DNA of 64,000 nt, from the IMG/VR virus record IMGVR_UViG_3300031784_000003, one strand, 5' to 3'. The translations under genes were made by a program, and so were the position numbers. This document shows, in pieces, positions 3,025-29,853 of the stretch. Origin of the DNA: a virus (Duplodnaviria > Caudoviricetes). Position 1 is the stretch's first letter. Every line of letters starts with the position of its first letter. The notes below the pieces were generated by a model. The model saw only the letters and a list, made by a program, of their open reading frames with translations, was not told the origin of the DNA and ran no database searches.

Positions 3025-3756
3025 ATGAAGGTAACCATTAAGGGTATTATTAAAGAGAATAGAGAGGATCTACTTATAGATAAAATCGTAGAGAGTTTAT
3101 TGAATGATACTGAATACAAAGTATACCATAGGTTTATGGGAGAGTATGTATGTGAGGTAAAGTTCCCAATGTTTAAGGGATTACCAAGAGTATATGATAG
3201 AGTAGATATTGTTGAGTTTATAAATATGTTTAAGGATCAAAAGGATAGTGAACTAACATCATTTAGATCATCTATAGATTGGAATAATTACCTTGAGAGT
3301 AATTATGGTATGTCAGGTGAACATAATGTGAGTAAGATCGGTATAAGATATTATAATACATTATTCACAAGAATATTAAAGGACTTTGATGATTACCATT
3401 ACGTTCCAGATTATGGTCCTGTTAATGAATCTGTAGATAAAAAGTTAGACGATACAATTAATAGAATAGTAGACTATATGATAGAGGATACTAAATGGGA
3501 TGTATATGAAGAATGGGAAGATGATTGGAGTTATGTGATGGTAACTTTACATTATCCTGGTGGAGAATACGAAAATTATAGAATAGAAGAGATGGAAAGA
3601 GATTGGGATAGGTTTAATTTGTATGAGGGAGACGTTCAATACGTAAAGGATCATTTTGGTATTAATCAAAAATGGATCATAGAAGAACTATATGATAGAT
3701 ACATAAAGAAACTACGTCCTATCATATATGAAGAAATGAAAAATTATGAACTATAA
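3025..3756 (+). CDS. two-module polyprotein (subtype B) with leader
   Basis: Leader MKVTIKGIIKE; IDKIVESLLNDTEY; linker VNESV (nt 3421); INRIVDYMIEDTKW. Confidence 0.8.
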   Translation: MKVTIKGIIKENREDLLIDKIVESLLNDTEYKVYHRFMGEYVCEVKFPMFKGLPRVYDRVDIVEFINMFKDQKDSELTSFRSSIDWNNYLESNYGMSGEHNVSKIGIRYYNTLFTRILKDFDDYHYVPDYGPVNESVDKKLDDTINRIVDYMIEDTKWDVYEEWEDDWSYVMVTLHYPGGEYENYRIEEMERDWDRFNLYEGDVQYVKDHFGINQKWIIEELYDRYIKKLRPIIYEEMKNYEL

Positions 3757-3817
3757 CTATTGACTTTTTAAAATAAAATGTATAATATTATATCATAGTT
3801 GTTTGATTTATTAGTGT

Positions 3818-4017
3818 AGGATCCTTTCCTCATCTCCTCCTCCACCCTAAAGGAGATGATAGTATAAAAGAATGACAGGTTCTTCTTTTATGTGAACAGA
3901 GGATCTTAACATGACAGTCTCCTCAGAGTTCATAGACTGAGTTGAGACAATTGTAAGGAGATAATATAATCATCGGATACTTTAAATAGTTTCACGAAAA
4001 AAATTATCTCCTTTTTT
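3818..4017 (+). ncRNA. candidate structured non-coding RNA
   Basis: ORF-free, with stems 3830-3838/3851-3859, 3864-3872/3883-3891, 3820-3825/3900-3905, 3917-3926/3937-3948 and 3955-3965/4003-4013 plus a T tail. Confidence 0.5.
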
Positions 4018-4028
4018 ATTTACCCTAA

Positions 4029-4060
4029 TTTGATTTTCTAATTTATTATTAGTATATTTG
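4029..4060 (+). promoter_or_regulatory. Bacteroidota-type promoter, no ORF downstream
   Basis: TTTG (4029-4032), 20 nt, TATATTTG (4053-4060). Confidence 0.75.
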
Positions 4061-4098
4061 TTTTATGAAATGATATAGTTACATACATATAATCCTAA

Positions 4099-4230
4099 TG
4101 GGGAGGGGGTATTACTTATACACAGTAAAAACCCCCCCTACTATACGGTAAGGGGGAGGGTCCCCCAGACACCCCCCATCGTATCCCCCCTTCCCTCTGG
4201 GGTAGTTTTTAGTTGTGGGGCGGAGGCGAT
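4099..4230. other. GC-rich island of G and C homopolymer runs
   Basis: GGGAGGGGGT...ACCCCCCCTA...AGGGGGAGGGTCCCCC...CCCCCC in an otherwise very AT-rich window. Confidence 0.7.
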
Positions 4231-4379
4231 GTTGTCCACGAATTTTCCAGGAAATTTTTAAGTTTAGGTTTGAACCTTTTTTTGTTTTATCTCTATAAAT
4301 GATGACACCATTTTTAAACATACCTCTGTAGTCAAATTTTTTTGGGAAATTTTTGTATTTATAATTAAACAATTATATT

Positions 4380-4706
4380 ATGGAGATAAATAGATTTAAA
4401 CAATTATTAGAATCAACAATGGGTAATATAAAACCATTGATTATGGAACAGACAGAAAAAATTGTTTCTTTAAAACAACTTAAAAAAATGGGGTATGATT
4501 ACCCAATGGGATCCGCTCCACCAAAAGGTGATTTAATAGATACTGAGATCAGTTCGGTTGGTAAAACAATTACTTCGGCATCTACGTCATTAATGACTTT
4601 AGTTAGACAAAAAAGTATACCATCAACAAATAATGATGGAATGATATTTAATAAAACCTTGGATAACGGTAATGTTGAGGTTAGGTGGGTGTTATTTAAA
4701 AAATAA
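4380..4706 (+). CDS. leader-bearing hypothetical (putative head cargo)
   Basis: MEINRFKQLLES...LIMEQ; TATTTATA at 4356-4363. Confidence 0.75.
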   Translation: MEINRFKQLLESTMGNIKPLIMEQTEKIVSLKQLKKMGYDYPMGSAPPKGDLIDTEISSVGKTITSASTSLMTLVRQKSIPSTNNDGMIFNKTLDNGNVEVRWVLFKK

Positions 4707-4719
4707 AATCTGTTATAGG

Positions 4720-4795
4720 TTTTTATTGTTCAATATTTAAGGTTGTTCAGTGACAATAAACACCCCTTATGGTTAAAAATTTTTCAGGAAATTTT
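4720..4795 (+). repeat. intergenic repeat A, copy 1
   Basis: TTTTTATTGTTCAATAT..TTGTTCAGTGACAATAAACACCC..CCTTATGGTTAAAAATTTTTCAGGAAATTTT; second copy at 5204-5296. Confidence 0.85.
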
Positions 4796-5208: not shown

Positions 5209-5296
5209 ATTGTTCAATATATGGGTTTGTTCGGTGACAATAAACACCCATTTCTGGTGAACATTCCTTATGGTGAAAAATTTTCCAGGAAATTTT
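5204..5296 (+). repeat. intergenic repeat A, copy 2
   Basis: Same three blocks as 4720-4795 with a short insertion. Confidence 0.85.
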
Positions 5297-5330: not shown

Positions 5331-6485
5331 ATGGATAATAAAAAAATATACTTAGATAAAATTGTAAATTATATTGTTGATGATACTATAATAAATTATA
5401 ATACTGACATTATAATATTCCCATTTTCCATTATCGGACCTTTAGGTAGACCATTACCTTCATTTATATCTGACGGTTTAGATTTGATGTCTTTTTATTC
5501 ATTTTATAAATACTGTAAAGATACTTATGGGTTAACAGATGAAGAAACAGATTATGTATGGAATAGGTATAAGGTGATTATAAATAATAAAATTAAGGGT
5601 AACATTAATGAATCTGTAGATAGAAGATCTGTTTATTTGGATAAGATTGTAGATTTTCTTGTAGATGATACTAAAATGGATTATAATACACATAAAGTAT
5701 GGTATCCATTTATGAGTGATGATATAAACCCTTTTCCTTTTTCACCTAATACTATTTTTAATATAGAAGTATCTCCAGTATTTGTAGATTATCTTAATAC
5801 TATGTATGGTATCGATTGGTATGACTCAGACTATGTATGGAAAAAATATATGATTATTATGACGAATAAATATAAAAATGATATTATTAATGAATCGGTG
5901 GATAGAAAAAATGATTATTTGGATAAGATTGTGGAATTTCTTATAACGGATACAGATATAGAGTATGGTAAAAAGATGATAAGATATCCATTTCTCCCTT
6001 CTACTCTATTTTCAGTTTTCAGTTCTTTCCGTACCCCCTACGTCAAGGAAACTCCCTTTTCTAAATATATTAAAGATAATTATGGTTTAACAGATGGAGA
6101 GATAGACTATGTATGGGAAGAATATAAAAATATCATTTTAGATAAATTTAATAATATGGGATCAATTAACGAATCGGTAGATAGAAAACAAGATTATTTG
6201 GATAAGATTGTAGATTTTCTTGTGGAAGATACCGATATTGGTCTTGGTTGGTTTAGTCCTCCTTACTATTATCCTGGGAGTACGGCAGGTAGAACTAATT
6301 TTAGATCGGTTTATGAACACACATTTAATTTATCTAGTAATACTAATTATAGTGGGTTGGATACTCAGTTAATTTATTTTGATCATTACTGTAAGAACAA
6401 CTATGGACTTACTGGTCAGGAGAATAAAATTGTTTGGGAACGATATATGAAAAAATTAAAGGAGACTTATAAATGGGGGTTTTAA
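5331..6485 (+). CDS. four-module polyprotein
   Basis: INESVDR linkers at nt 5604, 5886, 6165, each followed by YLDKIV.FL..DT; TATTTATA at 5316-5323. Confidence 0.9.
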   Translation: MDNKKIYLDKIVNYIVDDTIINYNTDIIIFPFSIIGPLGRPLPSFISDGLDLMSFYSFYKYCKDTYGLTDEETDYVWNRYKVIINNKIKGNINESVDRRSVYLDKIVDFLVDDTKMDYNTHKVWYPFMSDDINPFPFSPNTIFNIEVSPVFVDYLNTMYGIDWYDSDYVWKKYMIIMTNKYKNDIINESVDRKNDYLDKIVEFLITDTDIEYGKKMIRYPFLPSTLFSVFSSFRTPYVKETPFSKYIKDNYGLTDGEIDYVWEEYKNIILDKFNNMGSINESVDRKQDYLDKIVDFLVEDTDIGLGWFSPPYYYPGSTAGRTNFRSVYEHTFNLSSNTNYSGLDTQLIYFDHYCKNNYGLTGQENKIVWERYMKKLKETYKWGF

Positions 6486-27338: not shown

Positions 27339-29819
27339 TTAATAAACTTTCACTACTATCTCATCTTTAGGTTTAGAATAACTTACTTTAATTGTTTGTC
27401 CTTCGTTTACTCTACCACTTAATATTTCTTCTGAAACAGGATCCTCAATATACTTCTGTATTGCTCTATTTAAAGGTCTAGCACCATATTCTTCATCATA
27501 CCCCTGTTCGATTAAATAATCTTTTGCAGTTTTATTAATTTGTAAAGTATAACCGATCTCTAATACTCTTTCTTCTAACTTAGAAATTTCTAAATCTACT
27601 ATTTTACCAATTTGTTCTTTTGATAGTGATTTAAAAATTATTACGTCATCTAATCTATTTAAGAATTCTGGTGGAAATTGTTTTTTAAGTTCGTCAATTA
27701 ACAAACCATCTTTAACAGATTCTTCTTTTTCAAGTTTAGATTTTGTACCAAAACCAACACCTGTACCAAAATCTTGTAATTTTTTAACCCCAACGTTGGA
27801 TGTCATAATTACCATACAGTTTTTGAAGTTTACTTTTCTACCTGAACTATCTGTTAATTGTCCGTCATCTAATAATTGTAAAAGTGTATTATATATTTCT
27901 TTATTCGCCTTTTCAATCTCATCAAACAATACTATTGAGTAAGGTCTTCTTCTAACCTTCTCTGTTAACTGACCACCATCTTCGTGTCCAACATATCCTG
28001 GAGGGGATCCGATAAGTCTAGAGATAGAATGTTTTTCTTGAAATTCTGACATATCTAATCTTATTAAAGAATCTTCATCACCAAACATATACTCCGCCAA
28101 TTTTTTTGCAATATGTGTTTTACCAACACCTGTCGGACCTAAAAACATAAAAGAACCAATAGGTTTTTTAGGGTTTCGTATACCAACTCTATTTCTTCTT
28201 AACGATTTCGCAATTTTTTCTAAGGCATTATCCTGACCAATTATTTGTTTATTTAATTCAATTTCCATCTCCAACATTCTCTTACCTTGATCACCACTTA
28301 AACGTCTTAACGGAATACCTGTCATAATTGAAACTACTTCATTAACATCTTCAGGATTAATTGTTTTACGTTCTTTATCTATAGTTTCTAACCATTTTTC
28401 TTTCTCAACCTCTAATTTTTCATTAATTACTCTCTCTTCATCTCTAAGTTTCGCAGCCTCCTCATATTTTTGTTTTTTAACTACATTACTTTTTCTTTCT
28501 TTAATTTCATTAATTTTTTCTTCTAATGAACTTATACTTTTAGGTGCTTTAGCGTTCACTTGTGTTCTAGATCCAACCTCATCTAAGATATCGATTGCTT
28601 TATCAGGAAATTCTCTATCCGTAATATACCTATCCGCCATTTTAACACACTGCTCAATGGTTTCCTGTGGGTAAAATACTTTATGATAATTTTCATATGA
28701 GAATTTTATTTTGTTCAATATTTTAATAGTGTCCTCTACTGAAGGTGGGTTGATTAAAACTTGTTGGAATCTTCTTGCCAATGCCCCATCCTTTTCGATA
28801 TTTTCTCTAAATTCATCTAAAGTGGTTGCACCTATAACTTGAATGTCTCCTCTAGCCATTGCTGGTTTAAGTACGTTAGCTGCATCAATAGAACCAGACG
28901 CATTACCCGCACCTACAATCGTATGTAATTCATCGATAAATAAAATTACATTATCTACATTCATTAATTCGTCAACAATACCTTTTATCCTTTCCTCAAA
29001 TTGACCTCTATATTTTGTTCCTGCAACTAATGAAGTTATATCCAAAGATATAATTCTCTTATCTAATAACGTTCTTGGTGCATCACCATGAAATATTTTC
29101 AGTGCCAACCCTTCTATAATAGTAGTTTTACCCACACCAGGATCACCAATTAAAACAGGATTATTTTTTTTCTTTCTCGCCAATATTTGTGCAACTCTTT
29201 GGATGGATTCATCCCTACCAATTACTGGATCAATTTTACCTTCAGATGCCCTTTTTGTTACATCAATAGAAAAATTATCTAGTATTGGTGTCTCATTACT
29301 TTTATTGGTTTTTTTATTAGTTTTTTTATTTTCTTTAAAAAAATTGTCGTCTTCACTGTCTATTGGGTCAATACTATTTTGTATTAAATTTTTTTCCATA
29401 TGTTTTTTAATTGTATTATAATTTATTTTCATACCTTTAAGGATACTACCAACATTATTCTTAATTTTTAATGCTGAGAGTAGGATATGTTGAGTGTCTA
29501 AGAAATCATCTTTTAATGTATTACATTCTTTTTCCGCATTTTTCAAAATATTTTCAGTTGTATCATCTAATGGTATTTCTTTTAGACTAATATATTTTTC
29601 TTCTTTTTTTTCTTTTAATAAAGACAACTCAATTTTCTTATGTAAATTGTCTACATCAATACCAACACCACTTAATATTTTTATTGCGTTGTTATTATAA
29701 TCATTTATTAATGATATTACTATATGTTCAATTCTAATCTCATTATCGCCATACATTTTGGCTTGTTTAATTGACATAGTAATTATTTTTTTAACCTTTG
29801 GTAAGACTTTCTTCATCAT
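27339..29819 (-). CDS. clpC: ClpC/ClpA-family AAA+ chaperone subunit
   Basis: Clp N domain, Walker A GDPGVGKT and [23 protein letters not shown]-like [13 protein letters not shown]; start moved from 29834 because TATTTATA (minus) overlaps the longer start. Confidence 0.95.
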
Positions 29820-29821
29820 AA

Positions 29822-29853
29822 TTTGTTTTTTCATATAAATATCGTTATCTTTG
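29822..29853 (+). promoter_or_regulatory. Bacteroidota-type promoter
   Basis: TTTG (29822-29825), 20 nt, TATCTTTG (29846-29853). Confidence 0.75.

Follow-up and report, generated by a model that had tools for sequence, protein, structure and literature searches.

Does a 623-nt gap between two genes of an uncultured virus hold a functional RNA gene and, if it does, how might that RNA act? The gap lies between ORF 3025-3756 (+) and ORF 4380-4706 (+) of IMG/VR record IMGVR_UViG_3300031784_000003; the whole stretch of DNA analysed, 64 kb (64,000 nt) long, is referred to here as the window. An earlier note on this DNA had proposed a multi-stem phage RNA with mutually exclusive pairings, preceded by promoter boxes. 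To our knowledge, only a few of the small RNAs encoded by phages are understood, and hardly any of these belong to uncultured T4-like phages, which abound in natural waters.

The window is AT-rich (G+C content 26-33%) and encodes T4-type terminase, portal and Gp23-type capsid proteins. The portal shares at most 41% identity with those of cultured phages, the nearest being Microcystis phage Mel-JY01 and the next Flavobacterium phages; many close relatives are found in IMG/VR, with portal identities of 80-93%. One IMG/VR relative is a record of 253,879 bp rated 78% complete, so the genome is probably about 325 kb in size. The source is an uncultured, giant T4-like phage, probably a jumbo phage.

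A Shine-Dalgarno-like core lies upstream of two of 63 phage genes, which is below the 6% background; this absence suggests a host without Shine-Dalgarno-led initiation. The start regions of the genes are A-rich. The motif ATATTTAT(T/A) is repeated at about -30 to -10 of many window genes and is probably the late-promoter box of the phage.

Gene boundaries and fold of RNA1

The interval 3795-4018 (+) is very probably a real, strand-specific gene for a structured small RNA, termed RNA1, of an uncultured, probably jumbo, T4-like phage lineage. Its features are as follows.

3760-3765, +: -35 box TTGACT; TTGAC stands at the same spacing in homologues found by TTGAC-free anchors
3783-3790, +: -10 / -7 box TAATATTA, 17 nt past the -35 box
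3795-4018, +: predicted type I transcript of about 224 nt, its start placed by promoter geometry and its end by the terminator
3795-3806, +: 5' tail AUAGUUGUUUGA, invariant in 46 distinct type I sequences and common to types II and III
3814-3827, +: P1, 5' strand; the P1 helix contains GGATCC/AGGATC and closes a three-way junction; partner 3898-3912
3898-3912, +: P1, 3' strand; partner 3814-3827
3830-3838, +: P2, 5' strand (pyrimidine arm); partner 3851-3859
3839-3850, +: P2 apical loop CCUCCACCCUAA; family consensus CC(U/A)CCCCACCC
3851-3859, +: P2, 3' strand (purine arm) AGGAGAUGA; partner 3830-3838
3863-3892, +: P3 hairpin (3863-3875 / 3881-3892)
3917-3948, +: P4 hairpin (3917-3929 / 3934-3948)
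3955-4018, +: P5, intrinsic terminator with an 11-bp stem (3955-3965 / 4003-4013)

The TTGACT and TATAAT boxes proposed previously are both present, 15 nt apart. The second of these is displaced by comparison: relatives conserve TAATAT(T) at 3783-3789, giving a 17-nt spacer, and show TAATATTG, TATTATTG or TATATTTG at the -10 position, while TATAAT at 3781-3786 is not conserved.

With -61.1 kcal/mol (z = -3.70), the minimum free energy fold of 3790-4020 (+) was equalled by none of 200 dinucleotide shuffles. It contains all five stems and the three-way junction described in the earlier note. About 80% of nucleotides are in helices. The interior of P5 holds a second hairpin (3973-3981 / 3988-3997), and its U tract occupies 4012-4018. 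In the window sequence only, an alternative fold pairs the tail with 3943-3954.

The repeats that had drawn attention to this region (ATCTCCT, AGGAGAT and TGACAG, each twice) are all in the sequence: ATCTCCT at 3832 and 4006, AAGGAGAT at 3850 and 3955, and ATGACAG at 3872 and 3911. The repeated heptamers are explained by the similar make-up of two hairpins that each have a purine arm and a pyrimidine arm; the TGACAG repeat is confined to the clade of the window. Since just two of 63 phage genes have a Shine-Dalgarno motif, the AAGGAG strings in RNA1 are read as stem arms and not as ribosome-binding sites. No conserved reading frame was found in RNA1, and a coding function was rejected: the ORFs inside it have 3-7 codons and are not conserved.

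Homologues and covariation

Relatives were reached via the portal protein and a whole-record search, and then via conserved DNA anchors. The whole-record search gave a syntenic counterpart in two of five related IMG/VR contigs. In the first alignment the promoter, tail, P2 loop and terminator were conserved; the stems between them had diverged, with compensatory changes. Three anchors (two 17-mers, one from the tail and one, invariant, from the neighbouring gene RNA2, plus a relaxed promoter-plus-tail pattern) together added eight more viral homologues. In JGI and other metagenomes, the promoter-plus-tail pattern gave at least 120 matches, with TARA Oceans scaffolds among the matches listed. 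The family extends to well over a hundred metagenomic phage contigs (IMG/VR plus JGI/TARA). At least 132 instances, of which at least 109 are distinct, were extracted, all with the promoter and with AUAGUUGUUUGA as the first 12 transcribed bases. The metagenome pattern required the tail, so its invariance across body types is partly by construction; the tail is also invariant in homologues found via the RNA2 anchor.

Three body types are carried on this one promoter and tail. Type I, to which the window belongs, accounts for at least 69 instances, with at least 46 distinct full-length sequences that fall into four clades. Its overall architecture is shared by type II, which scores 50-69 bits over its full length with covariance model R1 (described below); type III scores about 25 bits and is more distant. 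Two loci (L149 and L179) have a type II and a type I gene together, 1.6-1.9 kb apart. L219 has two type I genes in convergent orientation, which excludes both as leaders of downstream genes. The genes downstream of RNA1 differ among loci.

Folded separately, the four type I clades give the same layout (tail, P1-P2-P3 junction, P4, terminator) with different stem sequences. R1 was built from 28 marine clade C sequences only, and it recovered the other clades including the window, where it matches 3793-4015 with 47.3 bits (E about 4e-11). The covariation alignment consists of 54 distinct sequences fitted to R1, a procedure that favours pairing; this bias is offset by the fact that a structure taken from one clade is satisfied by other clades with different bases. 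In this alignment, 94.7% of cells form standard pairs, compared with 81.4% in shuffles and 47-58% when partners are slid by 1-3 columns. Changes on both sides are seen in 50 of 59 pairs (27 when shuffled and 15-24 when slid), and the covariation score is 0.379 against 0.05-0.10 with slid partners. None of 500 shuffles reached the observed covariation values. The covariation among homologues by which the earlier note had proposed to judge its RNA is therefore strong; together with the separate promoter and terminator, it bears out the view of this region as a phage non-coding RNA. GU and UG cells number 389 and AC and CA cells 47, which identifies the plus strand as the RNA.

P1 (helices 2 and 3) has double changes in 8/8 pairs, with 97.4% of cells paired in helix 2 and 92.0% in helix 3. 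P2 (helices 4 and 5) reads CAUCUCCU/AGGAGAUG in the window and UUCCUUCC/GGAAGGAA in L096. Double changes affect 9/9 pairs of P3 (helices 6 and 7; 99.5% and 97.5% of cells paired, respectively) and 13/13 pairs of P4 (helices 8 and 9). In P5 (helix 10), 98% of cells are paired and eight pairs have double changes; between clades, GGAGAU/AUCUCC becomes GGGAUA/UAUCCC. The small helix 1 at the 5' end is the sole poorly supported helix. When all clades were put in one plain MAFFT alignment, RNAalifold recovered the terminator and nothing else. The cause is misalignment of the middle region, a problem solved by the per-clade folds and the covariance model.

Across the 46 distinct sequences of type I, three elements do not vary: the tail AUAGUUGUUUGAU, the P2 loop CC(U/A)CC-CCACCC and the core of the terminator stem. 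The C and A positions of the loop are invariant or nearly so (n = 46), and the stem below it covaries. Averaged across the family, the probability of being unpaired is 0.77 in the tail and 0.79 in the loop; both are therefore conserved, accessible candidate seed regions.

The family matched no described RNA. At the gathering threshold, Rfam 15 gave no match in the whole window, in agreement with the earlier impression that the RNA belongs to no recognisable family, and none in 11 representative loci covering types I-III and RNA2. At E values up to 10, the region 3600-4500 gave weak matches (14-21 bits; E 0.24-9.8), far below gathering scores. BLAST of the region and its marine homologues against 50,697 cultured-phage records, T4 included, gave no match. 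A search for homologues by an exact 22-mer from P1/P2 was also empty. No IMG/VR relatives were found for the flanking proteins (ORFs 3025-3756 and 4380-4706), and a literature search for the tail sequence returned nothing relevant. Phage small RNAs are a known kind; this family appears to be new with respect to Rfam 15 and cultured phages. A comparative analysis of IMG/VR intergenic regions is reported to have yielded more than 10,000 candidate structured RNA motifs (PMC10690425). RNA1 was found by the same approach, and the family could have an unnamed entry among those motifs.

Two apparent extensions of the family were rejected. Leader-like variants in G002 are chance matches or the reverse complement of gene starts, and R1 has no match there. 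An unrelated viral contig encodes a permuted tmRNA of alphaproteobacterial type at L114:7958-8282 (+) (RF04321, 101 bits), and the first 12 bases of this tmRNA equal the tail. The motif there belongs to a tmRNA helix and the match is at the chance level of the scan; it is probably a chance match and not a case of a generic 5' module.

The neighbouring RNA2 gene and leads to the host

A second conserved RNA gene, RNA2, lies in the same gap.

4030-4058, +: conserved RNA2 promoter TTGATT-17-TATATT
about 4065-4290 (within 4030-4290), +: RNA2, about 225 nt, with its own promoter and a terminator-like end
4095-4215, +: RNA2 core of about 130 nt, with G5-7 and C5-7 runs in a genome of 28% G+C
4243-4254, +: dyad TTTTCCAGGAAA at the 3' end of RNA2, conserved in all clades
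about 4268-4285, +: small terminator-like hairpin AGGTTTGAACC and T run

RNA2 is present on more than 70 distinct contigs; it directly follows type I and type III RNAs, and the type II RNA in L131. It is better conserved than RNA1, with CCCCCCTTCCCTCTGGG and GATGTTGTCCA..AATTTTCCAGGAAATTTT nearly invariant; taken with the separate promoter and terminator, this conservation indicates an RNA gene. Modelling suggests a fold in which a G5/C5 hairpin is combined with a long-range CCCCCCUU/AGGGGGGG helix enclosing CCC-UCU-GGG, and crossing inverted repeats suggest a pseudoknot. A minus-strand ORF over RNA2 (4112-4372) was rejected as a protein, as it aligns only with gaps; apart from L097 and L118, the loci compared have no minus-strand ORF over RNA2.

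In the marine contig L131, a tRNA-Glu gene (anticodon UUC; 6008-6080, +) is located between the RNA2 promoter and the RNA2 core. From its position, RNA2 may be co-transcribed and processed with the tRNA in that contig.

Several leads point to a Bacteroidota host. The phage promoters fit the sigma70 consensus and also the Bacteroidota TTTG / TAnnTTTG pattern; Shine-Dalgarno motifs are not used; the portal resembles those of Flavobacterium phages; and the look-alikes of a phage-encoded ClpC protein (nearest atlas clusters) are mostly from Bacteroidota. This protein, a full-length ClpC/ClpB-type double-AAA+ unfoldase of 831 aa at 27339-29834 (-) with Clp_N, UVR motif and D2-small domains, is unusual phage cargo.

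The sole match in genome collections is a phage contig within a Prochlorococcus single-cell assembly, and it counts against a Bacteroidota host. The contig (QCKH01000009.1, 63,985 bp, locus L238) was deposited in Prochlorococcus AG-409-L21, is the same contig as IMG/VR locus L110, belongs to the same phage lineage and carries a type III RNA with RNA2. It could derive from an infected cell, from a cell with an attached virus or from co-sorting.

Possible modes of action

RNA1 may well be a trans-acting small RNA whose loop and tail recognise a partner, a tentative reading which is favoured over that of a protein decoy. Host RNA polymerase would transcribe it from the sigma70-type promoter, and the intrinsic terminator would end the transcript. 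The three-way junction (P1-P3), P4 and the terminator P5 form a freely covarying scaffold. On it, the 5' tail AUAGUUGUUUGA and the 11-12-nt C-rich P2 loop CC(U/A)CCCCACCC are displayed, both of them invariant and for the most part unpaired. During infection, RNA1 would act in trans, with tail and loop recognising the partner. The likeliest partner would be a host RNA, with a G-rich or A/C-rich stretch to which RNA1 base-pairs, and the paralogous body types on one 5' tail could confer different specificities.

Within the phage itself there is little sign of a target. The complement of the loop or tail is not enriched in the window, nor is that of the tail in five related records. Among 80 ORF start regions, the best partner of the tail is that of ORF 4380 (14 consecutive pairs, -11.5 kcal/mol), a duplex equalled by 4.7% of shuffled tails (p about 0.05). 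A site of this type within 1.5 kb is found in none of 130 other distinct loci, and the match is treated as a coincidence of lineage or, at most, a local adaptation. The sequence TTAAACAATTAT occurs twice, at 4364-4376 and 4395-4407 (+), on either side of the ORF 4380 ATG; both copies are complementary to the tail (with G-U pairs) and are unique to the phage of the window among 131 loci.

RNA1 could instead bind a protein, as a decoy, a sponge or a subunit of a ribonucleoprotein, with loop and tail as recognition sites on a rigid scaffold. This is unlikely but credible. The partner might be a host RNA-binding or ribosome-associated factor or a phage protein, and RNA1 might act with RNA2. A scaffold with about 80% of its nucleotides helical and fixed sequence only in loop and tail would suit such a role, as would the lack of a base-pairing target in the phage sequences and the constant presence of an equally conserved structured RNA2 next to RNA1; the diversified body types fit an arms-race decoy. 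However, the analysis identified no candidate protein, nor does any lie consistently beside RNA1, and RNA1 does not have the repeated short binding motifs of CsrB-type sponges, its GGA-containing strings lying within stems. A narrower proposal concerns the tail only. The boxA element is the loading site for NusB/NusE in rrn operons, lambda nut sites and CRISPR leaders. Like boxA, the tail of RNA1 is short and U-rich and is found close to the 5' end of a transcript that is not translated; unlike boxA, it stands at +1 and not some tens of nucleotides downstream. If the tail loaded NusB/NusE, the untranslated RNA would escape Rho and fold correctly, and the loop or body would carry the function; this is compatible with either trans action or protein binding, and is rather improbable. 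It would account for the position of the tail at the very start of untranslated structured transcripts with several unrelated body types. The sequence GUUGUUUGAUA fits 9 of 11 positions of GYTCTTTAANA, the gamma-proteobacterial consensus (PMC5725501), from which the boxA of the host may differ; the rrn leader of the linked Prochlorococcus single-cell assembly has CACUCUUUGAAC, a similar form with 7 of 12 matching. Against it, there are two consensus mismatches (C to G and A to G), the likeness was noticed post hoc, RNA2 does not have the motif, the apparent extra case in the L114 tmRNA is probably a chance match, and a 224-nt RNA with a strong intrinsic terminator hardly needs anti-termination.

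The order of promoter, junction domain and terminator is also that of a riboswitch or attenuator. The junction would then serve as the sensor of a ligand or factor, and read-through into RNA2 and ORF 4380 would depend on the terminator. The heptamers ATCTCCT and AGGAGAT, twice each, would provide the exchangeable pairings, as would, in the window alone, pairing of the tail with the ORF 4380 start region or with 3943-3954. Comparison makes such a cis-acting leader very unlikely, and with it the mutually exclusive pairings and conformational switch put forward in the earlier note. In nearly all 54 members, the best pairing of the terminator 5' arm with upstream sequence does not exceed in length what shuffling of that sequence gives (typical p 0.3-0.7; window p 0.69), and the tail-ORF 4380 match is not conserved. 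Furthermore, the terminator is followed by a separate conserved promoter and RNA2, the L219 copies are convergent, downstream genes vary, and it is a hairpin loop and the tail that hold the invariant bases; the junction has no conserved nucleotides resembling a ligand pocket. A DNA-level element (an origin, packaging or recombination site) or a chance structure in an AT-rich spacer might be proposed from the unusual length of the 623-nt gap and its many inverted repeats. This is hardly tenable: it is effectively refuted by covariation (50 of 59 pairs compensatory), and the pairing is strand-specific (389 G-U against 47 A-C cells) and the promoter and terminator signals are conserved.

For RNA1 as a trans-acting small RNA, the closest known systems are S. 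aureus RNAIII and RsaE and B. subtilis RoxS, trans-acting RNAs in which C-rich loops pair with G-rich sites. RNA1 resembles these in being a stand-alone gene with its own promoter and intrinsic terminator and in having a conserved, exposed C-rich hairpin loop on a variable scaffold; it has no sequence or Rfam relationship to them. Its conserved single-stranded 5' end is reminiscent of seed-bearing small RNAs, but its length of about 224 nt and its three-way junction set RNA1 apart from typical RNAs of that kind, which are much smaller and less structured. Since the phage genes have no Shine-Dalgarno motif, RNA1 can probably not use the ribosome-binding site, which is the classical G-rich target. 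If this lack reflects the hosts, the C-rich loop cannot act as in the classical Gram-positive small RNAs, and the partner would be new.

Phage T4 carries the genes for its stable RNAs, C and D (species 1 and 2), in its tRNA region, and no function is known for either. Like RNA1, they are small, structured, non-coding RNAs of a T4-type phage, and a tRNA is found in the module in both cases, since a tRNA-Glu stands between the type II RNA and RNA2 in L131. In contrast to RNA1, which has its own promoter and terminator, RNAs C and D are shorter and are processed from a tRNA precursor, and there is no detectable similarity.

Comparative support for the RNA1 family is very strong, and its gene boundaries are clean. 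The family is modular, combining an invariant 5' tail, several bodies and a fixed RNA gene as partner, and this design suggests that its role in infection is conserved. RNA1 offers a defined experimental target of about 224 nt with two obvious sites for mutation, the loop and the tail, and its model could be added to RNA family databases by annotators.

A more speculative proposal, and a doubtful one, is that RNA1 and RNA2 are two halves of one phage RNA device, with types I-III as interchangeable heads, which reprograms host expression or disarms defence. Such a device might take the form of an RNA-RNA complex or a ribonucleoprotein, and might act in hosts without Shine-Dalgarno-led initiation; in one version, the exposed CCUCC-containing loop might imitate the 16S anti-Shine-Dalgarno tail. 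If true, phages would possess takeover machinery of a new kind, built from RNA.

The dyad at the 3' end of RNA2 also occurs elsewhere in the window. Two exact copies of TTTTCCAGGAAA and one near-exact copy lie at 4243-4254, 5281-5292 and 4780-4791, compared with 1.2 expected; the dyad may be a protein-binding site or part of a class of phage promoters.
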